Positions 2,972 to 35,735 of a DNA stretch of 64,000 nucleotides are shown piece by piece. The notes beneath the pieces were generated by a model. That model made no database searches and was not told the origin of the DNA. It saw only the letters and a list, made by a program, of their open reading frames with translations. The position numbers were made by a program, and so were the translations under genes. Source of the DNA: Patescibacteria group bacterium (GTDB lineage Bacteria > Patescibacteriota > Microgenomatia > Levybacterales > UBA12049); NCBI GenBank assembly GCA_038063415.1, contig JBBTVD010000006.1:9948-73947 (forward strand), read 5' to 3'. Within the stretch, counting starts at the first letter, position 1, and each line of letters starts with the position of its first letter.

Positions 2972-3020
2972 TTTATTTTAACCTATATTATTGATGATAC
3001 TTCTATGACATAACTAAAGC

Positions 3021-4907
3021 TTATCGCCAATTATCTGTTAGAATAATCGTCTTATTTTTTGGTTCGTGTTTAAGTGGCTCAATTTTGCCTATATCAATAA
3101 CTACAGGAACATTTGCTAAAAGGCCTGCCAAAATACAAGTTCCTGTTGGTAAAATTGGCAAATACTCAAATGAGACTTTATCTAAATAAGAGATTGTTTG
3201 TTTTACGGCATTAATATCTTCATTGTTAATAAGTCGATGGAGAAAATAGTTATGTAATTGTGAGATAATCGTCGGTGAAATATCCGATGGTCTCTGGCTT
3301 GCAAGAGTAAGGAAGACTCCAAACTTTCGACCCTCTTTAATAATTTCTTCAAAGGTTTCCAGACGATAATCCTTCCATTGCTCACTTTCTCGTTCAGAGT
3401 TCTCTGAGAGAATATTGTGGGCTTCATCAATTATGATATTTAAATATTTTCGATCATCATTTTCTATCTTTTTGTCGTTGTACAATTTCTTGCACAAGAG
3501 TAAAGGAAGAATTTTCCTCATATGCATATTAACATCCTTTAACGACACAATAGTAATATTTTTCCTTCCATCAATTTCTTCAATCGTCCTAATTTCGATA
3601 ACTTTTTTTAGATCATCAATTCTTTTATCTAATCGTTTAATAAGAGGCGAAAGATGTTCCTTGTTAGAAAATCCTCGAATTATGTCATTATAGTATTGAA
3701 TTACAATTTGCAATCTTACTTCGTCTATAGGTGTAACTTGAGTAATATCAATCTGTAGTAGAGTGATTTTACTATCAATAAAATCTGTTCTAAAAGTAGC
3801 TTGATCACTAAAGGTTTTTATTCCGTTTTCTTGATAATAATACTTATTAACTCCGCTATGGAACTTAAGGTGTTCATTATAATCTTCCAAGAGTGTAGTA
3901 ATAGTTGCATTGCCACCTAGGCAGTCTATAAGTTCTTTTAGTAAATTGAAAATTATTGTTTTTTCAACGTTTCTATCACTCTCAGTCGTAGCTTCATATA
4001 TCATTTGTCCAATTAGATTTTTTAACTCAGCTTCTTCTCGTATTTTGGGAGCAAGATAGCTGTTATCTACTGAACGACGTAAAAAGGGCATTTGTGTTTT
4101 TTCGGTTGCTTCTAAAAATACCACCCAAAAATCTGAATCATTAAGGCTCTCTCTTGTAATCGGAAACTTATCTCCTCCAGTTGTGCGTGTGGAAAGCTGA
4201 TAAGTATTCTTATATTTTTTGTCTATAATGACATGATCTCGTCTGTTACCATTTACATATTCGCCATTAAAATCAATTAGAAAAAATTTAGCGTTTCTTT
4301 TGAATTTTCTTTTATCTTTATATTTCAAAAAAAGCTCACGATAAATTTTTGCGAGTGTATATGATTTACCACTACCTGTGTTACCAAAAATGCCGATATG
4401 GCTTGCCATAAGTCCATTAACTCCTACTCGTATCTCTTGACCTTTCTCAAATGATAATGTACCTATGGTTAAAGGATCGTCATTATCTCTTATAAAGTCG
4501 TGCACTTGTTCAAATTCTTTTTTATGAAGTAGAAAACATTCATTGTCGAGCAATGGAAGCTCCTTAATGCCACGTTCAAAATGCTTTCCTTTAAAAAAGC
4601 CCAGTAGGCTGAGACTTAAAACTCTATTAACTTTTTCTTTCTCATTACCATACCCTTGTTTTTTAATAAATTGCTTATCTTCATTTACAAACTCACCTTC
4701 AACCTTACCTATGATTATGGTAAATCCTTTTATGATTTTAATATAGCCGCCAACGGAAATATTTTTTAGAAGTTCGCCTTTATATACAAGATGTGAGGTG
4801 TTCTTTGTTTTATCCACCTTTACTTCTACTGTTCTACCTTTAACTGAGATGACTTTCCCAATTTTGAAAATAGAATCCTCAGATAATTGATCGTTTTTTA
4901 TAGGCAT
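3021..4907 (-). CDS. herA: HerA/FtsK-like ATPase (DUF87), the HerA partner of a SIR2-HerA defence pair
   Basis: 628 aa. Walker A GIFGNTGSGKSY, Walker B IIIDEAHN, sensor TLASQRPSDIS. N-terminal beta-barrel-like region. Starts 5 bp after the upstream SIR2 gene on the same strand. Confidence 0.8.
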   Translation of the reverse strand: MPIKNDQLSEDSIFKIGKVISVKGRTVEVKVDKTKNTSHLVYKGELLKNISVGGYIKIIKGFTIIIGKVEGEFVNEDKQFIKKQGYGNEKEKVNRVLSLSLLGFFKGKHFERGIKELPLLDNECFLLHKKEFEQVHDFIRDNDDPLTIGTLSFEKGQEIRVGVNGLMASHIGIFGNTGSGKSYTLAKIYRELFLKYKDKRKFKRNAKFFLIDFNGEYVNGNRRDHVIIDKKYKNTYQLSTRTTGGDKFPITRESLNDSDFWVVFLEATEKTQMPFLRRSVDNSYLAPKIREEAELKNLIGQMIYEATTESDRNVEKTIIFNLLKELIDCLGGNATITTLLEDYNEHLKFHSGVNKYYYQENGIKTFSDQATFRTDFIDSKITLLQIDITQVTPIDEVRLQIVIQYYNDIIRGFSNKEHLSPLIKRLDKRIDDLKKVIEIRTIEEIDGRKNITIVSLKDVNMHMRKILPLLLCKKLYNDKKIENDDRKYLNIIIDEAHNILSENSERESEQWKDYRLETFEEIIKEGRKFGVFLTLASQRPSDISPTIISQLHNYFLHRLINNEDINAVKQTISYLDKVSFEYLPILPTGTCILAGLLANVPVVIDIGKIEPLKHEPKNKTIILTDNWR

Positions 4908-4912
4908 ATATT

Positions 4913-6094
4913 TTACTCTTCTGCTTCAGGATTGTTGATTTTTTCTTCTGTTACAATATTCTCTACGTTTTCTTCTTCCAGTAAACATCCAAATATATTT
5001 TTATTGATTGTTGGAAAGTCATATTCGAATTTGTCAATTTTTGATCCGTCACCTGTTACTTCTTGTTCCGGGGCAATAATTTCAATATTATTATTTTTAA
5101 TATTATTCTTTCCAAATTTTTCTTCTATACCTATTTTTGCCTTTGAACTATGAGCAATAACATAAATCATAAGAGTAGGATTAGAATTAGCAGCTCTTAA
5201 CGTTATCTCTTTAAGATGCTCGTCTGCAAAGGAAAATCCCATTACAAAAAGAACAGTATTATCTTTTTCAAGTTCATTTGAGTATAAACGCAAGAGTTCA
5301 TAATATGTCTGGTTCATGAGTGTATGCTTGAATTTCTCCTTTGTAGGATTAACAACAATCAGCAGTTTTTCATAGGCTTCCATAAATGCGTCAGTAGAAG
5401 CATCAGTAGTTTTTCCGGTCGCAGCTGTTATTAGTTTTGCTATTGTCGCATCTTCAGGGATATCTATAATATGTGCCGGAGAAATTGTTTTGCTTGAAAC
5501 TTCTTTAACGTGTTTTAACTCACAAGAAAAGATAATATCATTTGGTGTAATTTCCCAAGATAATGATCCATGTAATTTTGAAAGGTTAAATACTGGAAGC
5601 TCTGCTGTATTATCATAATGTAAACTTTTCTTGAAATGCGATTTTTTAAAATTACTGAGGCTAAATTTGGGTTTAAATCGTCCATTAAAACCGTCGTTGT
5701 ATTCAAGATTAAGATCTTCCAAAGCTTTTTCTAAAAAAATATCAATATTTGTAGTAAAAAGGTTTACTTCTTTGCTGAGAAGGGTAACTTTGCGTTTAAG
5801 CAGAATAGAATTTAATATGTTGAGAAAATTACGATAGGTTTCTAGGACCTCTTGTGCAGTAACATCAGATTCAAGTATTTTTGGATTTTTAGAAATTACG
5901 TCATCAAAATATTTTTTATAAAGAGATGCTCGTATAAGTTTTTTTTTGCTAGCGCTCATATTTTGTTTTTCTTCAAGCTCCGTAAGTAATTTCTCAATAT
6001 TTCCGAGCGTTTTGAGATACGGCAAAGATAGACCTGATCCTATGAGAAAGTTTATATTACAATCTTGAATTATATTTTTAATTTTATCGTTCAT
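4913..6094 (-). CDS. SIR2-family (NAD-binding GxGxS) protein, the SIR2 partner of the SIR2-HerA pair
   Basis: 393 aa. N-terminal FLIGSGLS motif (SIR2 GAGxS-type dinucleotide-binding loop). Tightly coupled to the HerA-like gene downstream. Confidence 0.75.
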   Translation of the reverse strand: MNDKIKNIIQDCNINFLIGSGLSLPYLKTLGNIEKLLTELEEKQNMSASKKKLIRASLYKKYFDDVISKNPKILESDVTAQEVLETYRNFLNILNSILLKRKVTLLSKEVNLFTTNIDIFLEKALEDLNLEYNDGFNGRFKPKFSLSNFKKSHFKKSLHYDNTAELPVFNLSKLHGSLSWEITPNDIIFSCELKHVKEVSSKTISPAHIIDIPEDATIAKLITAATGKTTDASTDAFMEAYEKLLIVVNPTKEKFKHTLMNQTYYELLRLYSNELEKDNTVLFVMGFSFADEHLKEITLRAANSNPTLMIYVIAHSSKAKIGIEEKFGKNNIKNNNIEIIAPEQEVTGDGSKIDKFEYDFPTINKNIFGCLLEEENVENIVTEEKINNPEAEE

Positions 6095-6105
6095 AGAGTT
6101 TATAA

Positions 6106-6288
6106 CTATGTGCTCTTTATAAATTTTTCGATATCCTTTTTATGATATCTTCTTACTCTTTTAATCCCAATTTTCATCGCAATAAGAATGCCTTTTTTAT
6201 CCCAAGCTCTGAGTGTATTCGGATGTACTTTTAATATTTTTGCCGTTTCTTTGAGCGTTAATAATTCTTCCATATATAATGCGGTCAT
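6106..6288 (-). CDS. HTH_17 (MerR/excisionase-family) small DNA-binding protein
   Basis: 60 aa, LLTLKETAKILKVHPNTLRAWDKKGIL helix-turn-helix. A paralog lies at 24320-24508. Confidence 0.7.
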   Translation of the reverse strand: MTALYMEELLTLKETAKILKVHPNTLRAWDKKGILIAMKIGIKRVRRYHKKDIEKFIKST

Positions 6289-6401
6289 TCTACATCATTT
6301 TTCATTATATTACAATACATTACATAACAACTGAATACAAAAGACGATGAGAATAAGAATTAAAAATTATGCAGAGAGTAATAATTAATGAGGGTCTGTA
6401 T

Positions 6402-6605
6402 TTAAAAAAGTTCTGGTACCTTTACTTTCAAAGCTCGAGCCAGTTTATCCATCAACTTAATAGATGGTGACTTTCTGCCTTGTTCAATATGCCCCATATG
6501 TGTCCTGCTTATGCGTAACTTTTCGGCTAGTTCTTCTTGCGTATATCCTATTGCCTTTCTTAACTTTTGAATCTTTCTGCCTTGTTTTTCTGGTGTAGTA
6601 GCCAT
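6402..6605 (-). CDS. XRE-family HTH transcriptional regulator
   Basis: 67 aa, IGYTQEELAEKLRISRTHMGHIEQGRKSPS is a classic XRE HTH. A paralog lies at 24005-24217. Confidence 0.75.
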   Translation of the reverse strand: MATTPEKQGRKIQKLRKAIGYTQEELAEKLRISRTHMGHIEQGRKSPSIKLMDKLARALKVKVPELF

Positions 6606-6725
6606 ATGAACATTATCGATAGCTTTGAGTTCTCAATCCACTAGCTTAAAGCGAGCATTTAGCCTCAACTACTACTTGATTTTATCTTTTGTTTCATTTA
6701 TGATCAGGAAGAGCTTCGAAAGGAG

Positions 6726-7175
6726 GTGATTTATATGAAGAAATTCTTAAAATGGGGAGGAATTGCCCTTATTATTATAATCGTGCTTGCTGTTATTGGC
6801 GGTGGTGGTAAATCAAGTAATAGTACAAACTCCACGGGAAATAGTGGACAAGCACAAGAACAACCGAAAACGCCTGAGATGGTTACAGCACAACAAATTG
6901 CTGATGACTTTGATGGCAATCAAGTTACTGCTGAAAAGACATGGAATGGTAAATTTGTACAATTTACAGCTACTGTTTCAAATATAACTGATACAGGGCT
7001 TTCTTTTACTAATGTTGCTTCAAAGCAATTTTCAATGGCACAAATAAGCTGTAAGGTAAAAGATACACAACAGCTATTGTCGCTTAAAAACGGAGAATCA
7101 GTCACAGTCAATGGAGTTATTGGCAAACAAACAATTGGTGTTATCGATATGAGCGACTGTGAAGTTGTAAAGTAA
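6726..7175 (+). CDS. small membrane-anchored secreted protein (OB-fold/BOF-like)
   Basis: 149 aa. N-terminal signal-anchor MKKFLKWGGIALIIIIVLAVIGGGG. Strong RBS aaaggaggtgat 7 nt upstream. The same N-terminus and RBS context recur in the gene at 35077. Confidence 0.6.
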   Translation: MIYMKKFLKWGGIALIIIIVLAVIGGGGKSSNSTNSTGNSGQAQEQPKTPEMVTAQQIADDFDGNQVTAEKTWNGKFVQFTATVSNITDTGLSFTNVASKQFSMAQISCKVKDTQQLLSLKNGESVTVNGVIGKQTIGVIDMSDCEVVK

Positions 7176-7190
7176 GCTCATCTTTCTAAG

Positions 7191-7230
7191 ACATTTCGGG
7201 TTAGAGTGCCTATCCTCCGAAATGTTTTTA
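7191..7230 (+). terminator. rho-independent terminator after the 6726-7175 gene
   Basis: Inverted repeat acatttcgg...ccgaaatgt followed by a T-run. Confidence 0.5.
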
Positions 7231-7569
7231 GTTGTATTCATCTTCTCGATAAGAGAATAGTAAAAAAAGATATTAAGGCACCTGCAATCGGACCACTCAA
7301 AATTATTAATTTACCCTCTGGGGATGACGCATTGTAGAGTCCCACTATATAAGTATAAAAATTAAATATTTGTTCCTTGAAAATAAAAACTAAACTTAGA
7401 AAAGCAAAGAAGAAAATAGTTTTTTTATTTTCGTAAATAAAAACTACGGGACGAAGAATAATGTATTCTAAAAATAATTCAAAAAAATCTTCATGAGTTA
7501 AGCGATTATATCATGCTACATAAAGTGTATTAAAATATTTTTTCATATATATTCTGTCGTATTTTGCGT

Positions 7570-7606
7570 CTGGACTTCGAATGGCTTTAGCGGTATCGTC
7601 TGCCCT
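7570..7606. repeat. CTGGACTTC...CGGTAYC motif, copy 1 of 3, upstream of recombinase A
   Basis: ctggacttcgaatggctttagcggtatcgtctgccc. Related copies at 34781-34815 and 35700-35735. Confidence 0.4.
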
Positions 7607-7753
7607 GATGAAAAAAGAGGAAGACATAGAAAAAGCGCTGCATATTCTTCAGAAATGCGAAAAGTACTTTTATTGGTATCTTTTGAAACACGATAAAATT
7701 TATATCGAACGCTTCTTTATTCACACCAAGAAACTAAAAAGGATGGTGCAAAA

Positions 7754-9055
7754 ATGGAAAACAAAGTAAATAATCCAATTGTTGAATATTGTTTATATGC
7801 AAGAAAATCATCAGAAGATGACGAGCGTCAGGCAATGTCCATTGATTCCCAAATTAAAGAGATGAATGAGATGGCAGTAAAAGAAGGATTGTTTATTAAA
7901 GAAATCCGCAGAGAAAGTCACTCAGCAAAAATGTCAGGACAACGCCCGGTATTTATGAAAATCATAGAGGATCTTCGTTCAGGGCTCTTCTCAGGCATCC
8001 TCACATGGGCACCAGATCGCCTGAGTCGCAACGCAGGAGATTTAGGGATGCTTGTAGATCTTATGGATCAAGAGAGGCTTGTTCATATAAAAACTTTTAC
8101 TCAAGCATTTTCAAATACTCCTTCTGAAAAGTTTTTGCTCATGATTCTTTGCTCACAAGCTAAGCTAGAAAACGACCAGAAAGGCATAAATGTAAAACGA
8201 GGAATTCGTGCAAAATGCCAAATGGGCTGGAGACCAGGACCTCCTCCGATTGGATACTTTAATAGAGCATTTAATGGGATAAAAGATATTGTGATTGATC
8301 CAGAAAGAGCATCTTTTGTTACAGAAATGTTTGAACGGGTCGCAAAAAATGGAGATAGTGGCAGAACGATAAAGCGATGGCTTGATAGAGAAGGGATGAC
8401 AACAAGAGCAGGTAAAGGAGTAACGCTTAGCCAAATTTATATGATGCTAAAAAATCCTTTTTACTATGGAAAGTTTGAGTACCCTATTGGGGGTGGAAAT
8501 TGGTATGAAGGTAAACACACACCACTAGTTAGTAAAGAAACTTTTGATAAAGTGCAAAAACAGTTGATTACTTATCCAAAGTCAGCATGGGGTGGGAAAA
8601 TTATTGCCTTTAAAGGATTGTTTAAATGTGGAAACTGTGGCAGAAATATCGTAGGAGAAGAAAAATGGAGAAAACGGAAATGGGCAGAGCCAGTAAAACA
8701 TGTTTATTATCACTGCGCTCCTATCCTCAATCGTTGTACTGAGCCTTATATTAGTGAGGAAAAGTTGATAAAGCAGATTCTAAGATATATTAATTTTATG
8801 AACATTGCTCATCCAAAACACTTAAAATTAACAGAAACACTTAAATCAAGCATTTCTGCATATATGGCAATACGAGAAGAAGTTTTATATGAACAAGAAA
8901 TTAATCCTAATGATTCACCAATAAATGTAGTCGAATTTGCTGCGTATGTTTTCAGGAGTGGGTCAATAAGTGAAAAACGAGATTTAGTACTTGCGTTAGA
9001 TAGACAGCTTTATATTAAAAATCAATTTATTTCATCTTTAAATGAAAATACATAG
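7754..9055 (+). CDS. large serine recombinase (resolvase-domain integrase)
   Basis: 433 aa. N-terminal resolvase catalytic region YARKSSEDDERQAMSIDSQ with the catalytic Ser context. Later recombinase domain and zinc-ribbon cysteines (CGNCGR...HCAP). Strong paralog at 35728-37062. Confidence 0.85.
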   Translation: MENKVNNPIVEYCLYARKSSEDDERQAMSIDSQIKEMNEMAVKEGLFIKEIRRESHSAKMSGQRPVFMKIIEDLRSGLFSGILTWAPDRLSRNAGDLGMLVDLMDQERLVHIKTFTQAFSNTPSEKFLLMILCSQAKLENDQKGINVKRGIRAKCQMGWRPGPPPIGYFNRAFNGIKDIVIDPERASFVTEMFERVAKNGDSGRTIKRWLDREGMTTRAGKGVTLSQIYMMLKNPFYYGKFEYPIGGGNWYEGKHTPLVSKETFDKVQKQLITYPKSAWGGKIIAFKGLFKCGNCGRNIVGEEKWRKRKWAEPVKHVYYHCAPILNRCTEPYISEEKLIKQILRYINFMNIAHPKHLKLTETLKSSISAYMAIREEVLYEQEINPNDSPINVVEFAAYVFRSGSISEKRDLVLALDRQLYIKNQFISSLNENT

Positions 9056-9056
9056 A

Positions 9057-12000
9057 CTAATCATTATATTGCCTCGTACCTCTGCAATAGGGGAACTTAC
9101 TACATCCATAGAATTTTCCGTATTTGCCATTTCTCAATACCATTTTTGAATTACAGTTAGGACAGTTTTCATGGTCAGATAAATATATAGGTGTCTGAGA
9201 AGAAACACTTTTCTTTTTACATAAATTACAAAATTTACCAATTCCGGTTATAAGAGATTTATCTTCAAACTGATAAGCATCTCTAAATTCTCCACATTTG
9301 GGACATTCTTTCATTTTTCCATTCTGCAAATTTTCAATTGTAGAATGAATATCGTCTAGTAATGGGTTTACTCTATGACGGTTTTTTACTAACTCTTCGA
9401 TTCTTTGATTTAATGTCTCAATTGGAGATTTTCCAATATTAAATCGATTAATTCTAAGGAATTTATATCCATAGCTTTCTAATACTTTTTCTCGATAAAC
9501 ATCTTGATCATTGTAATAATCTTGATAATTGAATTCATTTACGTCTTCATCCTCTTTAAAGTGTTCTTTAAATCCATCGTATTCAATTATTATTTTGTGT
9601 TCTCGCTTTCGTTCATCTATATAAACAAGCAAGAAATCTGTTTTATACGCAGGATGATTATATGATTTATTTAATTGTTTTAAATATTGACCGAGTTCAA
9701 ATTGTGGGAAAAAGTCTATATTGTCTTTATTATTTTTCCAAAACTGAGTTTGATAAAACCAATTCATTACTTCTTTCTCCATAGGGGAGTTCTTATCAGT
9801 CTCACTTACATCTCGTTCTTTTTTGGCTTCTTCCAAAGCAAACTTATAATGCATTAAAGCATTCCCAATAGATCCGCTAAATTCCTCTGGCTTTTTACTT
9901 AATACAAAATGCATGGTTTCTTGAGCACGACTAAAGCCAACATTTAAACGCTGCGCCTTAATCTTTCCGTCTTCTTCAATGTTAATACTATTTAAATCAC
10001 TGATGAAGATATATCCTAATCGATCATCTTGAGGAGTTGCTACCATTGAGTAAAAGATTGTATCTCGCTCTTCTCCTTGGCAGGTATCAAACGTCATGAT
10101 TTTCAATTTCAAATCCTTAAAATAGTAATCTCTTTCAGGTAATTTATTAATTCGATCACTTAATAATTTTTGTTGATCTGTATGTGGAGTTATTATTCCA
10201 ACACTTATTTTCTGATCATCTTTATGCATTTTTTCTAGCTCACTTATTATGTAGTCAATCTCTAACGAATTAGTTGTAGGAATCAAGTCTGTTTTGCCAT
10301 CAGATTCAATAATTTTAAATTTAAGCACATCGCTAATCTTTTTACCTCTTATCTTCATTACCTGAAGACTATCTTGATAGAAATATTTATTTGAATAAGA
10401 AATAATTTCTTTGTATCCTCTAAAATGCTTGATGAGTTGAATATTATAATTACTAATAAATTCAAAAAAGTCCAGTATGGAGGTTTTTATATTAAACTTT
10501 TCAAGCTTAACTAATTTTGCATTTTCTTTGGATATGTGTTTTGTGAACACTGATTTAAGATTATTCAGATACTCGGTATTTGTGTCAGATCGAGCTTGAG
10601 CTGCTTTTACATTACTAAACTGTTTCTTATCACCCAAAATTAGTACCTTTTTAGCTCTCAACAATGCAGGGAATGCTTGAGCAATACTTACCTGAGATGC
10701 TTCATCAATAATTACTAGATCAAAAATATCTGGCTCAAGAGGTATGTATTCAGCATAATCTCTTATTCCAGCTAAAATACAAGGAAATGCTTCTTTTAAT
10801 TTCGAAAATTCATCTTTGGGAAATTTTTGCTTCTTTTTAATTATTTCTCTCAATGTTTTTGCAGTTGCTCTACTATTTTCGTAAAAATCAATTAAACGCC
10901 CATCCATAATATAAGTCATCTGAGTTATCATTAGGTCTTCAATTATCTTTTTTTGATTGGAGTAATCACTAAAAGATATGCCCTTAAATTCTTTGGAAAT
11001 CTTTTGTAGTAAGCTTAAGTAGCGGAGTAACTTTTCAAAATCTAAATCTGTCATTCCTGTTAATTTATTATTATGAAAAGTCTCAAGAGAATTATTTATA
11101 CCAATATTCTGTGCGGACAAAGGATATATCTCTTTGAATAAATTAACACTTGAAAATAGAGCTTCGAGTGTTTCAATTTTTTCTAAATAATTTTCAAATT
11201 GATCGCTTATAATAAAAGTGCTGACAAACTTTATATAATCGAATTTATCTCCTTTTACGCTTAGCAACTGCTTTTGCAATTCGTCTGCGGATTTATAGAT
11301 ACGTACACACTCTTCAAGCAAGCTAATTTTGCTATGGGCATCTTTGATGGTTGATTGAGGAAATGAGATTTGAAAATCTGCATCTAATTTTTTAATTTTA
11401 TCTTTCTTAAATGTGTAGCCTAAAATCCAATTTTTTTCATTTTCATATTTAGTTACATATTCTTCTAATACAACGACATCTTTATCTGAAATTGGACCTA
11501 GTTGCTTTAAATTATTAATATTATCTTTATATATCTCATGCAACTTTAAAAAAATAGTTTTTACTTCTGCAAGGAATATTTTATGCGTCTGTAACTCTTC
11601 TATATTTTTAAGTTTGGAAAAGGAAAAACCGCTCAGTTTAATATATAATTGCTCTTCATCTGTTAAAGAAGAATCTTCAAGTTTGCCTTTAATTTCTAAG
11701 AATATACTTCTCAATTCATCGAGATCAGAAATGCCGTTGTCATTAGACACAATCTCTTCTTTGTCTACAATTGCCTTACTAGTTATAAAAAACTCTTCAA
11801 GATTAAAAAATTCATATATCTCATCGATATTTATATGACTATATGAATAAATTTCTGCTTGCAAATCCTCATTTAGAGAATTTAATCTTTTATCTATATC
11901 ACTTTCGACAGACGCATGATTGCTTTTTACAACTCTGTAATTAGCTTTAATATTCTCAATTGCAGAAGTAGCTAAAATTTGATTATAAGTACTCCCTGTT

Positions 12001-13625
12001 TTACCTAATCTTAAAAGAGGGTTTTGAAAATTCTTATCCAGTCTAACTTTATTTAAGGTCTGAGTAATTTTATCTTCTACAACATCTAATGCTTCTTTTT
12101 TATCTGAAAGGACCAAGATGGATTTATTTTCTAAAATGGCATTAAAAGCAATTGCCGTTATTGTATGACTCTTCCCAGTACCAGGAGGACCCTCAACGGT
12201 AATATAACTACAATCATCTTTTTTTAATGCAGAAAGTAGCTGTAATTGCTCACTATTTAGAGGAATTGGACTTCTCGCTATTAATTTCTCGCTCACCTCT
12301 AAGTTATCCCACTCTTCCTCTACAGCTGGATTAAATGGAGAAGGATCTTTGTATAGGAAGTCATTAATAAGTGAATTAAATTTCTCACCTAATATACTTT
12401 CTTCTTCTGCGCTTAATAACTGAAGAATATCTTCATAGTCATTAACTAACGCCTCATCAGATTTATCAAATAATGAAAAATATATGCTATTCGAAATTCT
12501 TACTGTAAAACTTTTTGCTAATTGTAATTTTGAGTCCTTGGTATCAAGCTTTTCATCCAGGCTAAAGAAGTTAACAAGCTCATCAAATATATCTTGGATA
12601 TTTGTGGCAAAAAGGCTTGGATCATCATTAATATAAATTATTCTTTCTGTAATCAACTTTAAATTGCCTCTTTTTTCCTGCTCTCTATTAAATTCTTGAG
12701 TAATAAACTCCAAGGCTTTTTTATTTATATAAACTTGAGGTTCAAAGTTTATATTTATTGAATCGCTTATCCTCTCCACAGAAAACGGAATGTAAAAAAT
12801 TGGATATTTTATATTGCTATATGTAATATCTCCAAAATACAAATAAAACTCTTGCTTATCGAGTATATTTTGATTCTTCATTAACTCATATACTTCTGAA
12901 AATAAATCGGTGACTTTAAAGGCTTCAAAAAAAGTGGTAATTATTGCTTTTACATCTTTAAGATCAAGAAGAGGCTTCAATTCTTGTTCAACGTTAACCT
13001 TTTCCTTTGCAATTAATAATTGTAGGATTTCAGATATTTTACTTTCAACCTGTTTAGTAAGTATATCCGTTAACTCTACCTCCATCAGATAGATACCATT
13101 CTCGTCAGTTAAATGCAGATTATCTAATGGTTTTTCTATACTTGAGAGAAATGGGAGGACAAAAGTTGTCTTTATCGCTTTAGATACGTTTTCTAAAGTA
13201 TTTGCGAGAGCTTGATCATATTCTTGCTTATTTATAATTGATTCTTCCTGAACTTCTTTGGATATCTTTGTAATAATCTGATTTATATCTTTACTACTAA
13301 TTTTCCCTATCTGAATCTTGATAAGATTAAGTAAGTTTTCTGGAATATTTACTTTATACACTCCTTTAGAAACAGTTTTCAACTGATCTTCACCGAATGA
13401 ATGACGAATAGTATTCCAAATAACATCAACGAATGTAGGATATTTTCCTAGATTCACTCCGACTAAAAGGTTGTCATTATTATGAAGTTTAATTGTTCTC
13501 CGAGGATTTTTATGCTTATGGAAATCTGACTCAAGAAAATCCATAAAGTACTTAGCAACTTCAATGATAAATTCTTTTCCACTACCTTGAAATGAAGCCA
13601 TTTTTTGTTTTACAGAGTCTTCCAT
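9057..13625 (-). CDS. giant SF1 helicase-nuclease: DUF4011-like N-terminus, AAA_11/AAA_12 Upf1/DNA2-like helicase, DUF559/Vsr-like endonuclease domain and a topoisomerase-type zinc ribbon (Hhe-like)
   Basis: 1522 aa. Helicase motifs GPPGTGKSHT, VIIDEASQV, TCQGEERD, RLNVGFSRAQ. C-terminal region EYDGFKEH resembles DUF559/PD-(D/E)xK. Terminal CPKCG...CPNCNSKMVLRNGKYGKFYGCSKFPYC resembles the Topo I C4 zinc ribbon. Confidence 0.75.
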   Translation of the reverse strand: MEDSVKQKMASFQGSGKEFIIEVAKYFMDFLESDFHKHKNPRRTIKLHNNDNLLVGVNLGKYPTFVDVIWNTIRHSFGEDQLKTVSKGVYKVNIPENLLNLIKIQIGKISSKDINQIITKISKEVQEESIINKQEYDQALANTLENVSKAIKTTFVLPFLSSIEKPLDNLHLTDENGIYLMEVELTDILTKQVESKISEILQLLIAKEKVNVEQELKPLLDLKDVKAIITTFFEAFKVTDLFSEVYELMKNQNILDKQEFYLYFGDITYSNIKYPIFYIPFSVERISDSININFEPQVYINKKALEFITQEFNREQEKRGNLKLITERIIYINDDPSLFATNIQDIFDELVNFFSLDEKLDTKDSKLQLAKSFTVRISNSIYFSLFDKSDEALVNDYEDILQLLSAEEESILGEKFNSLINDFLYKDPSPFNPAVEEEWDNLEVSEKLIARSPIPLNSEQLQLLSALKKDDCSYITVEGPPGTGKSHTITAIAFNAILENKSILVLSDKKEALDVVEDKITQTLNKVRLDKNFQNPLLRLGKTGSTYNQILATSAIENIKANYRVVKSNHASVESDIDKRLNSLNEDLQAEIYSYSHINIDEIYEFFNLEEFFITSKAIVDKEEIVSNDNGISDLDELRSIFLEIKGKLEDSSLTDEEQLYIKLSGFSFSKLKNIEELQTHKIFLAEVKTIFLKLHEIYKDNINNLKQLGPISDKDVVVLEEYVTKYENEKNWILGYTFKKDKIKKLDADFQISFPQSTIKDAHSKISLLEECVRIYKSADELQKQLLSVKGDKFDYIKFVSTFIISDQFENYLEKIETLEALFSSVNLFKEIYPLSAQNIGINNSLETFHNNKLTGMTDLDFEKLLRYLSLLQKISKEFKGISFSDYSNQKKIIEDLMITQMTYIMDGRLIDFYENSRATAKTLREIIKKKQKFPKDEFSKLKEAFPCILAGIRDYAEYIPLEPDIFDLVIIDEASQVSIAQAFPALLRAKKVLILGDKKQFSNVKAAQARSDTNTEYLNNLKSVFTKHISKENAKLVKLEKFNIKTSILDFFEFISNYNIQLIKHFRGYKEIISYSNKYFYQDSLQVMKIRGKKISDVLKFKIIESDGKTDLIPTTNSLEIDYIISELEKMHKDDQKISVGIITPHTDQQKLLSDRINKLPERDYYFKDLKLKIMTFDTCQGEERDTIFYSMVATPQDDRLGYIFISDLNSINIEEDGKIKAQRLNVGFSRAQETMHFVLSKKPEEFSGSIGNALMHYKFALEEAKKERDVSETDKNSPMEKEVMNWFYQTQFWKNNKDNIDFFPQFELGQYLKQLNKSYNHPAYKTDFLLVYIDERKREHKIIIEYDGFKEHFKEDEDVNEFNYQDYYNDQDVYREKVLESYGYKFLRINRFNIGKSPIETLNQRIEELVKNRHRVNPLLDDIHSTIENLQNGKMKECPKCGEFRDAYQFEDKSLITGIGKFCNLCKKKSVSSQTPIYLSDHENCPNCNSKMVLRNGKYGKFYGCSKFPYCRGTRQYND

Positions 13626-13788
13626 AAGTTATTACCATTGTCCTTTATATGAACTTAAAATTCAAGGGTATTGAAGCAAAATGCTGCACATCTTGGCTAC
13701 TGAAGAGCAATTATCATCCTAGCTTTATTATAAAAAATCCAGATTCGACTATAAAGGGAATCTAGCCTTATGGTGTTATAATCTAATA

Positions 13789-14775
13789 ATGCATTTTAAT
13801 AAAACAATCTTACTTTTGGGTGCCGGGTTTTCAAAGAATTTTGGTGGACTCCTAGCAAGAGAAATGTGGGCAAAAATATTTAATCATCCTTTATTGGATA
13901 CTGCTGGAGACGTAAAGTTAGCTTTAAGGCATGATTTTAATTTTGAAACTGTCTATTCTGCAATGTATAACTTTACTGAGAATGGGAAAAAAGATCAATT
14001 TAAAGTTTTGGAACAAATTTTACAAGATGTTTATAAAAATATGAACGATATATTACTCAACCCGGCTGCTGATACTGGAGTAAATATTAGTTTGCTACAA
14101 AATAATTTTATAAACAAATTCACGGATGATGGTAGTGGAGGGTTTGGTGCATGTTTTTCATTGAATCAAGATTTATTTTTTGAGAAATTCTTTAATAGAA
14201 ATCCACTAGGTCCAGCATCAATAATTTATGGAACTAACCCTAATACTGTTCATGCAGGCGAACTTAATATAGATAAAAATCTTCCAACTCCAGAACAAAT
14301 GGATGCTTATAAAGCACAATTTCAGGAACGAGGGTTTGGATTTATTAAATTGCATGGTTCATTAAACTGGATTACCGCGGATGGTAATTCCGCCAAAGTC
14401 ATTGGAATAAATAAACCTGAAATCATCTCATCCATCCCTTTACTCAAATGGTATAGAGAATTATTTGCACAAGCTGTTCAACAAGAAAATATTAAATTAG
14501 TTGTTTATGGATACAGCTTTAATGATAAGTATATCAACGATATTATTGTAGATGCCATTCATGGTAAGCCTGATAGAAAAGCAAGTAATGCGAAAATTTA
14601 TATTGTTTCACCAGAGAATCCTAAAGATTTGAAGGAGAGACTTGAAAAGACAGATCATGGCGAAATATGGAATGCTGTAGATGGTTATTTCCCATATCTT
14701 ATGCGTGATTTATTCCCAGCTAATGGACAAACTACTTCTCAGTATAATGAACTTATTACGCGTATTGGATTTTAA
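13789..14775 (+). CDS. stand-alone SIR2-like domain protein
   Basis: 328 aa. N-terminal LLLGAGFSKNFGG (SIR2-type GAGxS loop). Divergent from the helicase-nuclease gene. Confidence 0.65.
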   Translation: MHFNKTILLLGAGFSKNFGGLLAREMWAKIFNHPLLDTAGDVKLALRHDFNFETVYSAMYNFTENGKKDQFKVLEQILQDVYKNMNDILLNPAADTGVNISLLQNNFINKFTDDGSGGFGACFSLNQDLFFEKFFNRNPLGPASIIYGTNPNTVHAGELNIDKNLPTPEQMDAYKAQFQERGFGFIKLHGSLNWITADGNSAKVIGINKPEIISSIPLLKWYRELFAQAVQQENIKLVVYGYSFNDKYINDIIVDAIHGKPDRKASNAKIYIVSPENPKDLKERLEKTDHGEIWNAVDGYFPYLMRDLFPANGQTTSQYNELITRIGF

Positions 14776-14964
14776 TAGCATTGTCTGTTTAAGAGTATTC
14801 ATGAGATAACTATCTCGAATTACAGTCTCATGGTTCTAATCCGTATTGAACGACCTCACGAACATATCCGAACGCTAGCTTCTGTATCCATTCTTTGAGG
14901 GTGTGAATCATGAGGGTACGGTTGCGATACCGCACGTCTTTGCTGAGCGGTCCGGTCTAGAACC
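14776..14964. repeat. att-arm-like segment, paralogous to 37063-37243 and ending in a degenerate copy of the tRNA-Gln 3' end
   Basis: Richer in G+C than the flanks. Shares blocks (acctc.cg.acat..cgaac..tagc; atatccga...ctttgagggt.t; ggtacg) with the sequence between recombinase B and tRNA-Gln. Ends ...cggtccggtctagaacc, similar to ccggacctggattcgaacc of the tRNA. Confidence 0.45.
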
Positions 14965-15118
14965 TTCTTATCCTTATAACGATTGTCTCACATCAAGGCT
15001 AAACGAGACAAATGAGACACTATAAAAAGGGATGTCTCAAATGATAATGATGTAGTTTGATATAGAAGACCACCACATTGGAACTCTCTTCCTGTAAGGA
15101 ATATACTTGAACTAATAT

Positions 15119-15763
15119 ATGGCAAAAAAGACAAAACTAATGAGCATGCGAAAGCTGATCTATTTAGTACTATCTATAGTAATTCTTGGTCTTGGTGCTC
15201 TAGTTTGGTATAAAAACTGGCAAAGCAAGTTTGAAGCTCCTAGACAAAATACTCAATCAATTGGGTTTACTTTTAAGAAAGATACCTCCTTAACGGCAGT
15301 AGTTGGTGATCTTCACTATTACGGATTCATTAAAGATGAAGGTGCGTTTATATACGCATTAGCGCACACAAAAGATAATACTCCAGGCAAAGAGAGTGCT
15401 CTTACTATTGGGAGTAACACCATCAACCGAGAAGCTAGATATAAAATCTCTCAAAGTATGACTGCTTGGCAAATAGCGGACGTACTACTTAACCAAGGTG
15501 AACTTAGTACATGTGACCACGGCTGTCCTGATAGTAACTTTGATCCTGAACTTCTTCCGGGTGGCGATTTGGCACCCACTCTGAAAGAAAAGTACTCTGG
15601 GGTTAAAACCTACGAAGATTGCACCAAGGCGATTGGCCACGATGGCGGGCAACTTTCTTCAGAACAATATGCTCAGAGAACTGGAATTAGGAGATGTGTC
15701 GCTCCTGATGGGCGAGAATTTACTCAAGGGAAAGAAGGTTGGTCAGATGTCCCTACTCCTTAG
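15119..15763 (+). CDS. membrane-anchored hypothetical protein
   Basis: 214 aa with an N-terminal TM helix (LIYLVLSIVILGLGALVWY). Composition is more G+C-rich than neighbouring island genes. No recognisable catalytic motif. Confidence 0.5.
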   Translation: MAKKTKLMSMRKLIYLVLSIVILGLGALVWYKNWQSKFEAPRQNTQSIGFTFKKDTSLTAVVGDLHYYGFIKDEGAFIYALAHTKDNTPGKESALTIGSNTINREARYKISQSMTAWQIADVLLNQGELSTCDHGCPDSNFDPELLPGGDLAPTLKEKYSGVKTYEDCTKAIGHDGGQLSSEQYAQRTGIRRCVAPDGREFTQGKEGWSDVPTP

Positions 15764-16415
15764 GTGGTCGACCCCTTTTTACAGTAACTGTTCCTGGTAT
15801 ATTAGTTTGAGCTAGTTTGTGGCTAATCGCTCCTATATTTACGTCGTACGCCTCCAATCTAGGACTGTAGGACACAACACGAGCAATAGTATCAGGATGA
15901 TTGGAAACTTCTTGGACTGAAAATGCTTTTAAGTCAGTTTTCAAAGCCAATAGGTTATCTGTTACGGCTTGGTGATCAATTTCTAAATCCTTGCCAATAT
16001 GAATAAGAATCCAGTATCCTTCTGGTAACTGGAACTTACCCCCACGCTCACTTAATTTTTCTACCAATGATTTTTTAGGTAAACCAAGTTTGTTTCTACC
16101 ATAAAATGTCATTTCAATAGGAGCTATTTCTTGTGTTTCATCAGAGACTGGTCGCATTAGAAATGCATCAGGCGAATCATCAATATTATTCATTTGTACG
16201 AAGCATGAATGCTCTTGCATTGTATAGAAAGCTAAGCCAAAGATCGCCAAGTCGCGTAGTTCGCGAATCCTTTTATGCTTGCCGTTGTACTCAATCTCAT
16301 CATGACCAATGCCTGTGGCTTGTTTTTGATACTCAAAATAAGCCATATCAGGTCTTAGCCACACCTTATCGTGAGGAATCGTAAATTTTCTCGATGGTTT
16401 CTGCGCGTCTTTCAT
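15753..16415 (-). CDS. hypothetical protein, gene 4 of a four-gene operon
   Basis: 220 aa, no recognisable domain. Overlaps or abuts upstream genes on the same strand. Confidence 0.55.
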   Translation of the reverse strand: MKDAQKPSRKFTIPHDKVWLRPDMAYFEYQKQATGIGHDEIEYNGKHKRIRELRDLAIFGLAFYTMQEHSCFVQMNNIDDSPDAFLMRPVSDETQEIAPIEMTFYGRNKLGLPKKSLVEKLSERGGKFQLPEGYWILIHIGKDLEIDHQAVTDNLLALKTDLKAFSVQEVSNHPDTIARVVSYSPRLEAYDVNIGAISHKLAQTNIPGTVTVKRGRPPKE

Positions 16416-16423
16416 ATATTAAA

Positions 16424-17440
16424 TTAATCTTTGGACTTCTTGATTCCGACCCTCCCGAGTATAACAAAATATAAGTAGAGAACGAGGGTAGTATTTTGGA
16501 AATTACACTCCGCAGGAGCTATTTCACCATGAGCGATTTTATGTCTGAGCTTATATCCCATGGGCTCAAAGAGAACGAACTTAATTTGCCTACAGAAGTC
16601 TTCTCCAAATATTTTTATAAAATCTTCTGAATCAAAATCTCTTTCAGAAAGTACTTTCGTACGTGTGGCTGTATCGACTGTGGTATCTAAGGCGACAGTA
16701 CTAATGCCCAGTTGTTTGGCTATGCTTAATAAAAATGATTCAAACTGTGGAACTAAAATATGAAGAGCAGAAATATAATCCTCCTCATAATATTTTTTAA
16801 TACCAACAAGTACTATCTTAAGTTGATTGGGAGTAAACAATTCTGATTTAGAAAAATAATCAGATATTTCTTCAATGTTCATCATCTCTCCATAAGGGTT
16901 GCCATTTATTAGCATATACATTAATCGATTTAGACACAAAGTAACTATCTGTTTCAAACTTAAATCATACATTTGCATAAACCATGAGTATTCTGCTAAC
17001 GAGCCCCCACGCAAGTTGTGACCTTCGTCTGAAATAGTAGTTAATGTTGCAAACTGATAAGTGATTGGCATTGTTCTCTTAGCCAAAATATCCACATCTT
17101 TAACTTTGGGCATAAAATCAGGGTGCTGGCCAATAATCTTCAGTACTCGGTTTTTATCATCGATCTTGAGAATACCTACAATAAAGTTTTTAAGAGAATT
17201 ACTTTGTTCTTCGGTCAGATCATGTACAAACTCATGTTCTTGAAAATCCTTGCCAGACTCAATAGATTTTTTATTCATTTCCACAACCTTCGCCTTACAA
17301 AGTTTTATGGATACAGAGTCTTCAAGTTTTTTTGCCATTTCAAGCGCTTCCTTATATATAATCGCGGCACTAAAGAAACTTTCTGAATTTTCAGCTGTCT
17401 TTGCCTCCTCAATTTTTTTGTTAAGATCCGTTTTGTTCAT
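16424..17440 (-). CDS. hypothetical protein with a C-terminal HEPN-like (Abi_2-type R-x-x-I-A-H) motif
   Basis: 338 aa. C-terminal LRHKIAHGE fits the Rx4-6H HEPN signature and the Abi_2 (AbiD/AbiF) RxxxAH pattern. 4-bp overlap with the upstream gene. Confidence 0.55.
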   Translation of the reverse strand: MNKTDLNKKIEEAKTAENSESFFSAAIIYKEALEMAKKLEDSVSIKLCKAKVVEMNKKSIESGKDFQEHEFVHDLTEEQSNSLKNFIVGILKIDDKNRVLKIIGQHPDFMPKVKDVDILAKRTMPITYQFATLTTISDEGHNLRGGSLAEYSWFMQMYDLSLKQIVTLCLNRLMYMLINGNPYGEMMNIEEISDYFSKSELFTPNQLKIVLVGIKKYYEEDYISALHILVPQFESFLLSIAKQLGISTVALDTTVDTATRTKVLSERDFDSEDFIKIFGEDFCRQIKFVLFEPMGYKLRHKIAHGEIAPAECNFQNTTLVLYLYFVILGRVGIKKSKD

Positions 17441-18264
17441 TGTGATTTCCCAAAGTTAATCTGTTGCATCCACTCTTTTTGATTATGCGCTGACATAAAT
17501 GATGGATCTTGAGAAACCATAGCAAAAAGTATGGACATAACTGGTTTACTCTCTTTATCGTAAGGGAAAGTTAGTAAACAAATAAATCCCATTGATTCAG
17601 AAGAAATAGAAGAGCGAAGATCATCTGTAGCCTTCTTTAAATCGATACTCAAGTTTGTTTCACTTGAATATGGCATGACTAGAACACAATTAATGCTTGC
17701 GGGTTTTTGAAAGTACTTTTTATATATTTTAAGTCCTTCAGTAAGTTGATAATTAGGATTGCCTTTAACAGAAATCTTTGGGTTGATCATCAAAGATTTT
17801 AATTCTAACGGAATAGATATAGTCTCTTTAGCGGTGTTTTTTGGTAATCCAAGTAAAAAACCGTCCCAGCTACCTTTTCTGAAATGTGCTTTTACACCTA
17901 TTGTCTGATCAGGGAGTTGCCATGATGGAATTAACGTATAGTCAGTGCTATGTTTGCCTAATGTGTATGTCGTCTGGAGCACTCCTACCAAAATAGCTAG
18001 CTCGATTGCTCTCAAATCATTATCAAAGTCGAACTCGTTGAGAAGTTGGATATCCTTAGCTCTTTTCATGAGTACATTTTGCAAATGCTCAGTGTTAGAT
18101 AGCTGTTTGGAATTGCTGAGCAACTCTTGCTCGAAATACTTTTTTATTTGTCTGTAGAGATATTTGACATCATATGCGGCCTGAAAATTTATTGTTCCGT
18201 TGACCGTTTTGGCTAAAATATTTATGACCTTTGGTTTATCATTCTTCAAAACTGGACTTTCCAT
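17437..18264 (-). CDS. hypothetical protein, gene 2 of the operon
   Basis: 275 aa, no recognisable motif. Translationally coupled to the downstream gene. Confidence 0.55.
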   Translation of the reverse strand: MESPVLKNDKPKVINILAKTVNGTINFQAAYDVKYLYRQIKKYFEQELLSNSKQLSNTEHLQNVLMKRAKDIQLLNEFDFDNDLRAIELAILVGVLQTTYTLGKHSTDYTLIPSWQLPDQTIGVKAHFRKGSWDGFLLGLPKNTAKETISIPLELKSLMINPKISVKGNPNYQLTEGLKIYKKYFQKPASINCVLVMPYSSETNLSIDLKKATDDLRSSISSESMGFICLLTFPYDKESKPVMSILFAMVSQDPSFMSAHNQKEWMQQINFGKSQ

Positions 18265-18276
18265 AGTATTCTTGCA

Positions 18277-19953
18277 TTATAGTTCAATAGGTTTGCCATC
18301 TTTACCAACAATTGTTTCTCTAATTTTCTTATCTTTTCTTGGGTATTTCTTCAAAAACTCTTGATTCTCTGAAACCAGATAAATAGTGTAGTAAATCTGT
18401 CCTTTTTCATTCTTCAAGTCGCGACCTTTTAGCAACCCCTCTCTTTTTAATTTACCTCTTGTCGCAGGATGTACCCCAAAGTCTGATTCTATCTGCCAAT
18501 CTTGGAAGTAAATATTATCCTTGTCATATCTATGCTTTAGTGGAGGAATCACTCCTGATTTGATATTATTCCAGCAATTTCTGCACCACAAGCCATTTAG
18601 CGTCCACCAAATGTCTTTTCCATATGCTCCTTCACCACAAATTCCGCAAGAATACGGCCCTTTACCATCATCAAGGAAGAATCCTTCTGGCTCTTTCTCC
18701 AGCCTTCTTTTTCGTGTTGCTTCAATACCATCAAACTCTCCAGACATTTTTGCGAGCTGTACGAGATTATGGTTCGCATACTTAGCTCGCTTTTCTGGAT
18801 CTATTTTTGATTTAGAAGCTTTAACCTCTTTTTTAGCTCCTACCAACTCATGCAGATCTTCTTCTTGTTCGTACGCTTTCAGAGTGCCGGAGAGATATCC
18901 AATGCGGTAGCGTATCCCATCACTCATTAGTCTCCAATTGGTGTCTTCTAATGTGTCTTTCAGGAGCTTCTTGAGAGTTGCTTCACTTATATTAGGATTT
19001 CGTGTTGAATTAGCATCTAGAACATTAAAGGGAATCGTAACAAACCTTCCCATATCTGGTTTATCCAGCGTGAACTTAACATATTTTTCCTTCTCTAGTT
19101 TTTCAGTAAGCAGTTTCTCGACTTCAAGAACAGTTAACCTTTTTAGATTGACTGCCGTTTGGTAGGCTTTGTCATCGTATTTCTGTTTTTCTTCTTCATA
19201 TACCTCATGACCTACTTCCATGGCTTCAAGTGTTTCAACGTGTTCTATTCCATCCTTTTCATTTAAACAAAACTCTTCTCGATACTTCTCAAGAAGCTTT
19301 TTGCCTTCTTCGTCCTTACTCTTTTGCTCTTCCTTCCATTTTTTGTGTTCCTCATCATGTTTACCAAGATCCTCAATTTCAATTTTTGTATAACCACAGG
19401 CTTTGCATTTGTGTTTCCAAGTAATGATTTTGCCTTTTCGAGTAGCTATTATATCTATTTCTTCTTTGCACTTTGGACAAAGATCAGGTTTTGAAACGCG
19501 AATCTCACCATCGTCATATACCCACTGTTGTTTCTCGCAGTTACTGCATTTAAAAAGAAACATCATCCTTATGATTGGGCTGTCGTAAGTAGAGTCGAGA
19601 TGTTTTGTGATATTGAAATGCATCGGAGCATTACAGAGAGGACAGACAATACCTTCGGGAGTTGGAGTGTAATCTTGCTTATCTTGTTTTAACTTATCTT
19701 CTTCCATCCACTTCTGGATAGTTTCTTGCTTCTTCTCATACCTTTTGCCTTTTACAACAAGAAGCATTCGACTGAGCATGAGATTTACATCGTGTAACTT
19801 ATCTTCTTGGGAAATATCTTTTATTTCTTGGCTAGTTAGGCTTTTTTGATAAATATCCTGGAACATTTTTACCGTATCGAGGCATTCTTCAACGGTATGA
19901 AGATCGTAGCGATCTATATAGTGTTGCTCATCTTCCAGGTATTTCATTGGCAA
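18277..19953 (-). CDS. multi-zinc-ribbon hypothetical protein, first gene of the operon
   Basis: 558 aa with at least three CxxC...CxxC pairs (CPLC/CSNC, CPKC/CKAC, CGIC/CRNC) and charged coiled-coil-like linkers. No enzymatic motif recognised. Confidence 0.6.
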   Translation of the reverse strand: MPMKYLEDEQHYIDRYDLHTVEECLDTVKMFQDIYQKSLTSQEIKDISQEDKLHDVNLMLSRMLLVVKGKRYEKKQETIQKWMEEDKLKQDKQDYTPTPEGIVCPLCNAPMHFNITKHLDSTYDSPIIRMMFLFKCSNCEKQQWVYDDGEIRVSKPDLCPKCKEEIDIIATRKGKIITWKHKCKACGYTKIEIEDLGKHDEEHKKWKEEQKSKDEEGKKLLEKYREEFCLNEKDGIEHVETLEAMEVGHEVYEEEKQKYDDKAYQTAVNLKRLTVLEVEKLLTEKLEKEKYVKFTLDKPDMGRFVTIPFNVLDANSTRNPNISEATLKKLLKDTLEDTNWRLMSDGIRYRIGYLSGTLKAYEQEEDLHELVGAKKEVKASKSKIDPEKRAKYANHNLVQLAKMSGEFDGIEATRKRRLEKEPEGFFLDDGKGPYSCGICGEGAYGKDIWWTLNGLWCRNCWNNIKSGVIPPLKHRYDKDNIYFQDWQIESDFGVHPATRGKLKREGLLKGRDLKNEKGQIYYTIYLVSENQEFLKKYPRKDKKIRETIVGKDGKPIEL

Positions 19954-35699: not shown

Positions 35700-35735
35700 C
35701 TGGACTTCTCGAGAGGTTCCCGGTACCTTGACCAC
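35700..35735. repeat. CTGGACTTC...CCGGTACCTTG motif, copy 3 of 3, immediately upstream of or overlapping the recombinase B start
   Basis: ctggacttctcgagaggttcccggtaccttgacc. Confidence 0.4.

Follow-up and report, generated by a model that had tools for sequence, protein, structure and literature searches.

Hhe joins, in a single polypeptide, a superfamily 1 (SF1) helicase of the AAA_11/AAA_12 type to a C-terminal nuclease of the Vsr/DUF559/MTES_1575 type, carries a DUF4011 N-terminus and is encoded in defence islands. Mokosh is built on an Upf1/COG1112-type helicase core and a phospholipase D (PLD)-family nuclease, supplied either as a separate protein (MkoB) or by fusion. The SIR2 proteins of Thoeris (ThsA), DSR1/DSR2 and SPARSA (SIR2-APAZ/prokaryotic Argonaute, pAgo) are fused to or paired with a sensor, and in SIR2-HerA (Nezha) the SIR2 gene adjoins that of its partner, a HerA ATPase, and is co-transcribed with it. 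The locus described here recalls both kinds of system. It lies in a 64,000-nucleotide stretch (hereafter the window) of the genome of a Patescibacteria group bacterium (assembly GCA_038063415.1, contig JBBTVD010000006.1), in which the gene for a 1522-aa helicase-nuclease is encoded divergently from a gene for a stand-alone SIR2-like protein. An initial annotation took the two to suggest a two-component arrangement of helicase sensor and SIR2 effector. The present analysis favours another account, in which the helicase-nuclease and SIR2-like genes are probably independent single-gene cargo modules, chance neighbours in a 37-kb serine-recombinase array at tRNA-Gln. On this view the serine-recombinase element carries two uncharacterised defence candidates, each a single gene, and not a new two-gene system.

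Genomic association of the two genes

The two open reading frames (ORFs) and the interval between them are arranged as follows.

9057-13625, minus strand: helicase-nuclease ORF, 1522 aa
13626-13788: divergent spacer, 163 bp, between the helicase and SIR2-like ORFs
13789-14775, plus strand: SIR2-like ORF, 328 aa, encoding a stand-alone single-domain SIR2_2 protein

Both ORFs are real, divergent and positioned as the initial annotation had placed them. The spacer had also been described as a shared control region, a suggestion that had to be dropped: promoter-like sites are not enriched in it, it holds no notable repeat or palindrome, and an Rfam search of it returned no match, so that a shared regulatory element was rejected.

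Co-occurrence was assessed from both sides. Metagenomic helicase loci were the best 80 of at least 482 candidates, with at least 1.2 kb of flanking sequence upstream in 46 and downstream in 47; SIR2-like loci were drawn from 185,579 species genomes, the best 80 of 197 candidates being inspected, with flanks of at least 1.2 kb upstream in 60 and downstream in 69. Searches by tblastn and a family hidden Markov model found a SIR2-like gene in none of the 80 metagenomic helicase loci, and the count remains zero for all 87 helicase loci (80 metagenomic, three closest relatives, one plasmid-borne and three on viral contigs). The three closest relatives of the helicase (68-73% identity) have no SIR2-like gene; their neighbours encode UvrD-PDDEXK, TerB_N, an SbcCD-like pair, and PDDEXK_1 together with DUF2779. 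The helicase on a Priestia megaterium plasmid is a solo gene with no SIR2-like neighbour, and the three IMG/VR copies have no SIR2-like gene inside the fetched flanks. Across the 80 metagenomic loci, the only recurrent neighbours of the helicase are recombinases and integrases.

Seen from the SIR2-like gene, the association is almost as sparse. A helicase is present in one of the 80 genomic SIR2-like loci (L028; loci and proteins are designated by L and P numbers), or in one of about 85 when further family loci are counted. The nearest SIR2-like relatives, L001 (78% identity), L002 (61%) and P0004, P0005 and P0006 (54-61%), are without a helicase, and the homology of L001 to the window detected by blastn (76% DNA identity) is confined to 13789-14745, stopping at the boundaries of the SIR2-like ORF. 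The genes directly beside the SIR2-like gene, 139 in all, are spread over 142 different Pfam families, among which no conserved partner was found; the large serine recombinase is the sole recurrent neighbour family. With counts of 0/87 helicase loci and 1/~85 SIR2-like loci, the proposed two-component system did not survive the co-occurrence check. In a cargo region of the kind that surrounds these genes, adjacency of two defence-type genes is to be expected.

The single further adjacency, in a Candidatus Methanoperedens metagenome-assembled genome (MAG; L028:9660-15735), deserves separate treatment. There the SIR2-like gene (9968-11053) is followed on the same strand, after 80 bp, by the helicase gene (11134-15717), a tandem arrangement unlike the divergent one in the window. 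The pair forms an AT-rich block of about 6 kb (G+C 0.32 for the SIR2-like gene, 0.28 for the helicase gene) lying between cdhC and a cooC-like gene (G+C 0.48 and 0.50) of a carbon monoxide dehydrogenase/acetyl-CoA synthase (CODH/ACS) operon with a G+C of 0.44-0.50. This isolated insert within a core operon suggests joint mobility of the two genes.

It also argues for a facultative or lineage-restricted two-gene module, in which the helicase-nuclease would sense or process invader nucleic acid, the SIR2-like protein would add NAD+ depletion, and the pair would sometimes travel as a unit. Adjacency is seen twice, in unrelated hosts. According to a preprint, phage genes for NAD+ reconstitution partly counter Hhe, a single-gene helicase-nuclease (10.1101/2024.10.10.617714); this is the only external hint tying helicase-nucleases to NAD+ metabolism. 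Against such a module stand the differing orientations of the two pairs, the absence of the partner from every one of the 87 other helicase loci and of the helicase from about 84 of 85 SIR2-like loci, the unpaired state of the closest relatives of both genes, and the way in which the homology block of each gene ends at its own ORF. The SIR2-like copies of L028 and the window are, moreover, just 35% identical, which is family background. Taken together, these observations make a facultative module quite unlikely; were it real, it would be an undescribed combination in which a stand-alone sirtuin accompanies an SF1 helicase-nuclease. Each gene may also, and more probably, represent by itself a new single-gene defence family.

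Architecture and distribution of the two protein families

The helicase-nuclease matches P0121, a protein encoded in a Patescibacteria-group MAG, at 100% identity. Its parts, from the N-terminus, are listed below.

12261-13625, minus strand: N-terminal domain, aa 1-455, helical bundle plus beta-sheet
11763-12260, minus strand: first part of helicase RecA1, aa 456-621, AAA_11 and AAA_30 matches, Walker A GPPGTGKSHT (K485)
10746-11762, minus strand: helicase insertion, aa 622-960, about 340 aa, mostly helical, inside the motor core
9879-10745, minus strand: motif II through RecA2, aa 961-1249, DEASQ (D974/E975), AAA_12 match
9396-9788, minus strand: likely Vsr/DUF559/MTES_1575-like PD-(D/E)xK nuclease, about aa 1280-1410, with D1330, E1348-x-D1350-G, H1355, R1391 and N1393
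9219-9305, minus strand: first C4 zinc ribbon, C1441, C1444, C1466 and C1469, weak zinc-ribbon Pfam matches
9066-9170, minus strand: second C4 zinc ribbon, topoisomerase-I type, aa 1486-1520, Zn_ribbon_Top1

The initial annotation had named a Upf1-like AAA_11/AAA_12 helicase and a C4 topoisomerase-type ribbon and called for a profile check of its assignments; Pfam confirms both, with matches to AAA_11 (aa 456-621, E 6e-17), AAA_12 (aa 1061-1241, E 1.5e-16) and Zn_ribbon_Top1 (aa 1486-1520, E 9e-12). K485 of Walker A and D974/E975 of motif II are invariant, as are the later motifs, and this holds among family members only 28-48% identical. A sequence search of the PDB aligns the motor alone with Upf1, IGHMBP2, Sen1 and DNA2 (E 7e-9 and weaker), which identifies it as an SF1B, Upf1-like helicase. 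The insertion that splits the motor varies more across the family than any other part, with low consensus in alignments, and matches nothing in Pfam, PADLOC or NCBIfam at E<=10. The four cysteines of the first ribbon are invariant in the family alignment (A2); of 32 diverse family members, only 11 have a detected topoisomerase-I-type ribbon.

The nuclease region is less clear-cut. Searched in isolation, the C-terminus matches MTES_1575 (E 4e-4, 20.7 bits) and DUF559 (E 1.8e-3, 18.6 bits) below the respective cut-offs of 38.2 and 20.6 bits; MTES_1575 is reached at E<=1e-3 in six of the 32 diverse family members, and a precomputed match to it exists for a homologue (P0160). Family alignments show little or no variation in the Vsr-type signature D1330...E1348-Y-D1350-G...H1355...R1391-x-N1393, and many homologues carry the JGI annotation 'very-short-patch-repair endonuclease'. 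An AlphaFold model of aa 1250-1522 (predicted local distance difference test, pLDDT, 72.5) retrieves with Foldseek a top list consisting mostly of PD-(D/E)xK nucleases, including BstEII, TnsA, VRR_NUC, I-Bth0305I and cap-snatching endonucleases, every match having E>1e-3. The Vsr/DUF559-like nuclease that had been predicted is thus weakly borne out: the conserved motif and the nuclease-like top folds support it, while the Pfam scores are sub-threshold and no Foldseek match attains E<=1e-3. A nuclease fold for aa ~1280-1410 is, on this sequence and model evidence, likely.

The N-terminal domain sets the family apart. It had been described as DUF4011-like, an assignment now ruled out: aa 1-455 give no match in Pfam, PADLOC or NCBIfam at E<=10, and DUF4011 (PF13195) occurs in 0 of 32 diverse family members. 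AlphaFold models the region at pLDDT 78, approaching or exceeding 90 over long stretches, and Foldseek finds no significant match to the model in PDB or BFVD. A phmmer search of 1.84 billion representatives with this domain returned 439 clusters at 50% identity, 288 of them at E<=1e-10; in every case the domain forms the N-terminal part of a long protein (about 1300-1715 aa). Because it is always fused to the same long architecture, the domain marks a distinct, self-contained family, of which, judged by sequence, it is the signature.

That family is large and heavily transferred, and each member is self-contained. More than 1500 homologues of the large protein were found; the best 120, which are 55-73% identical over their full length, come from candidate phyla radiation (CPR) bacteria, Aenigmarchaeota and other archaea, Syntrophaceae, Zixiibacteriota and Pedobacter, a host range for close relatives that implies frequent horizontal transfer. 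Helicase genes from very different hosts (L081-L160) retain 64-73% nucleotide identity to window positions 9076-13575 over kilobases, and this identity, together with the AT-rich composition of the L028 and window copies, suggests recent spread from AT-rich donors.

The same distribution bears on an alternative in which the large protein has no immune function. It would then act in maintenance, repair or a selfish activity of the mobile element, for instance processing element DNA or biasing its own inheritance by means of its nuclease, and its place in a defence island would be a cargo effect. In keeping with this, its conservation is unusual for a defence gene: copies from CPR bacteria, DPANN and anaerobic methanotrophic (ANME) archaea, Syntrophaceae and Pedobacter show 55-59% identity over ~1520 aa and hardly vary in length. 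The recombinases and integrases that recur beside the helicase gene point the same way, as do its copies on the P. megaterium plasmid (one) and on IMG/VR predicted viral contigs (three). The related DUF4011 gene of P. aeruginosa, furthermore, is a core and not a variable gene (PMC10250203). Other evidence counts against a non-immune role: the helicase core is nearest to defence or defence-candidate models (PDC-S37, MkoA/MkoC, Hhe and ProA), the window neighbourhood is dense in defence systems, and the gene is not fixed in the element backbone described below, which is found without a helicase in L015-L023. A search of 50,697 phage genomes likewise yielded no family member, just generic helicase-core matches. 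On balance this alternative is unlikely.

The SIR2-like protein is simpler. Its sole Pfam match is SIR2_2 (PF13289; aa 123-287, E 1e-8, 35.8 bits, cut-off 24.5). The 328-aa protein therefore seems to consist of a single domain, and family members are of uniform size, ~320-350 aa. The GAGF motif, N126-Q-D128 and H189 are invariant in 47 family sequences, and the catalytic residues align with the motifs of solved SIR2 proteins. The earlier description as a SIR2-like, NAD-binding type of protein is upheld by the score above the gathering threshold and by the retained catalytic residues. By sequence, the protein appears to be an intact, catalytically competent-looking SIR2-like enzyme.

Two anecdotal observations concern genes near its relatives. 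A SIR2-like gene with 54% identity has a NUDIX hydrolase gene two positions downstream, and one with 61% identity has a 2',5'-RNA-ligase/LigT-like gene nearby; the positions recorded for these observations are L166:1794-2201, L167:1794-2201 and L168:104-676. Products of the ADP-ribose type are possible substrates of both enzymes.

The defence function, substrates and activation of both proteins are envisaged as follows. In the large protein, the N-terminal domain would serve as a sensing or regulatory (gating) module; the ATP-driven SF1B motor and the predicted single-stranded DNA-binding zinc ribbons would load on or track invader single-stranded DNA or replication/recombination intermediates, and the Vsr-like domain would nick or cut the engaged nucleic acid. 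The protein, which probably acts alone, would be a restriction factor that unites helicase and nuclease in one chain, broadly in the manner of Hhe. The SIR2-like protein would be a separate, minimal NAD+-consuming enzyme, either an NADase or an ADP-ribosyl-transferring one, with its own cassette and its own trigger; it probably acts alone or as a homo-oligomer, with NAD+ consumption as its predicted activity.

Several points weigh against the reading of two independent single-gene defence modules. The isolated, AT-rich two-gene insert in L028 is more easily explained by joint transfer than by two separate insertions. The loci inspected on both sides were the best part of larger candidate sets, and metagenomic contigs are often short. 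The nuclease assignment stands on sub-threshold sequence matches and weak fold matches, and for phage defence both genes are candidates only.

The element array and its other cargo

The recombinases, backbone and boundary of the mobile region are as follows.

7754-9055, plus strand: Rec1, large serine recombinase, Resolvase, Recombinase and Zn_ribbon_recom matches
20196-23479, plus strand: element backbone, comprising a ParB-N6/N4 methylase (20196), a small helix-turn-helix terS-like gene (21520) and a 515-aa terL-like protein (21932)
35728-37062, plus strand: Rec2, second serine recombinase, 68% identical to Rec1
37244-37317, minus strand: tRNA-Gln, adjoining Rec2, right-hand end of the mobile region

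The first 37.2 kb of the window are a tandem array of serine-recombinase integrative elements at tRNA-Gln. The region shows a recombinase at its end, an adjacent tRNA gene, foreign composition and variable cargo on a conserved backbone, all criteria of an integrative element. The two 68%-identical recombinases, the second of them beside tRNA-Gln, suggest tandem integration of two related elements. Beyond tRNA-Gln lie core genes for UPF0182 (37544-40303), TerC and glutamyl-tRNA synthetase (GluRS), and G+C climbs from 0.30-0.39 in the mobile region to 0.40-0.44 in these genes. Short blastn searches around tRNA-Gln and Rec2 found no attachment-site (att) repeats, an unsurprising result for serine integrases.

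Homologues of Rec1, whose stop codon is 1 bp from that of the helicase, occur in the vicinity of the SIR2-like gene in 18 of 80 loci and of the helicase in 9 of 80. The backbone, in which a large serine recombinase accompanies the trio of ParB-methylase, terS-like and terL-like genes, recurs in five SIR2-like loci (L015, L017, L019, L021 and L023) and in one helicase locus (L083); L080 has the methylase and terS-like genes only and is cut inside the methylase match. In L165 (856-12372), a serine-recombinase element of about 7 kb carries a 58%-identical SIR2-like gene as its terminal cargo; the element lies about 1.5 kb from a UPF0182 gene of the same family as the first core gene of the window.

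The cargo of the island comprises a DUF2779/Cas4-like nuclease, SIR2-HerA, the helicase-nuclease, the SIR2-like gene, a four-gene operon, a type I restriction-modification system, and a LmuB-like ATPase with a Cas4-like nuclease. Three of these blocks have the following extents.

3021-6094, minus strand: complete SIR2-HerA system, HerA (PADLOC 4e-175) and SIR2 (3e-63)
15753-19953, minus strand: tightly packed four-gene operon, encoding 558, 275, 338 and 220 aa
31248-34768, plus strand: Lamassu-like pair, a 920-aa AAA_23/SMC-like ATPase (best PADLOC match LmuB, 5e-15) followed by a 251-aa PDDEXK_1/Cas4-like nuclease, just ahead of Rec2

The SIR2-HerA system already provides the island with a partnered SIR2, distinct from the stand-alone SIR2-like gene. 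In the four-gene operon, only the 338-aa protein was matched (DUF4209, and the C-terminal part of PADLOC PDC-S39); a 50% identical homologue of the 558-aa protein is encoded about 4 kb from a helicase homologue in L161. A further candidate defence system may thus be present in this operon.

In 5 of the ~45 helicase loci with enough flanking sequence, the helicase is followed downstream by a DUF2779/Cas4-like nuclease gene on its own strand: L083 (14614-16089) and L087 (12025-13581), at 22-33 bp from the helicase, and L109, L125 and L163. In the window (1466-9056) such a gene is likewise co-oriented with the helicase, but 3021-9055 intervenes, encoding HerA, SIR2, an OB-fold protein and Rec1. 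This interval looks like a serine-recombinase mini-element of about 6 kb carrying SIR2-HerA, inserted exactly at the helicase stop codon.

Significance and comparison with known systems

The negative pairing result removes a tempting, unsupported 'new two-component system' and illustrates how adjacency in defence islands can mislead. What emerges is a very widespread, conserved helicase-nuclease family, moving between bacteria and archaea, with an N-terminal domain that matches no family model or solved fold. Alongside it stand a minimal SIR2 family, stand-alone and mobile as a single-gene cassette, and a serine-recombinase element family by which such cargo is shuffled in CPR bacteria, a group with poorly known immune repertoires.

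The SIR2-like protein shares motifs with the SIR2 subunits of SIR2-HerA-type systems (PDB 8yhx, 8j4u and 8w9l) and with PADLOC Aga_SIR2, which is pAgo-associated: FT(L/T)N(Q/Y)DL, K(L/I)HGS..W and GY(S/G)FxDxHxN are common to all. It differs from them in having no HerA, pAgo/APAZ, SLOG or other sensor as partner or domain. The HerA of the window (3021-4907) pairs with the SIR2 encoded at 4913-6094, whereas the gene at 13789-14775 has no HerA neighbour; across loci, the list of 25 Pfam families for the 139 genes directly beside the SIR2-like gene includes no HerA family. That the SIR2-like gene is a copy of the SIR2 of this SIR2-HerA system was considered and rejected, their likeness being at motif level only. 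The sensor, fused or paired, that distinguishes ThsA, DSR1/DSR2 and SPARSA is likewise missing from the SIR2-like protein.

On the helicase side, the solved SF1B helicases Upf1, IGHMBP2, Sen1 and DNA2 have motor motifs that align with the large protein, and DNA2 also joins an SF1B helicase to a PD-(D/E)xK nuclease. Core motifs alone match; domain order and accessory domains differ.

Among defence models, PADLOC ranks PDC-S37 first for the large protein (4e-43), ahead of MkoA/MkoC (~1e-32) and Hhe (1.6e-17). The NCBIfam models score far below their cut-offs: ProA (NF058533) reaches 138.5 bits against 1500 (E 1.6e-40), and Hhe_antiphage (NF042953) 94.1 bits against 2000, aligned over aa 943-1243. 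All of these matches are confined to the helicase core. The best stretch for PDC-S37 covers aa 958-1289, and that for PADLOC Hhe aligns aa 947-1249 with profile positions 1360-1643 of 1911; when the N-terminus, insertion and C-terminus were searched separately against PADLOC and NCBIfam, none matched PDC-S37, ProA or Hhe at E<=10. Membership in Hhe, ProA, PDC-S37 or Mokosh was rejected on score and coverage.

PDC-S37 and ProA are nonetheless the best-scoring defence models, and the PDC-S37 profile is of similar length (1550 positions) with a colinear match; the matches are limited to aa ~943-1289, below a full-length criterion. No paper under either name was found in the library searched. Mokosh shares its helicase core with the large protein and differs in its PLD-family nuclease, that of the large protein being probably Vsr-like; Pfam and PADLOC detect no PLD domain in the large protein or its window neighbours.

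Hhe differs in its DUF4011 N-terminus, to which, as to the rest of the Hhe model, aa 1-455 of the large protein are dissimilar. The large protein has, in addition, the 340-aa motor insertion and C-terminal zinc ribbons, and at 1522 aa it is shorter than the Hhe profile (~1800-1900 positions). The initial placement among Hhe-type proteins consequently holds in kind and not as family membership. Like Hhe, the large protein is a single polypeptide that contains an SF1 helicase with intact ATPase motifs; a Vsr-like nuclease behind the helicase is likely, and a topoisomerase-I-type zinc ribbon follows. It is likewise encoded in a defence island and is also without a conserved partner, with recombinases and integrases alone recurring beside its gene.

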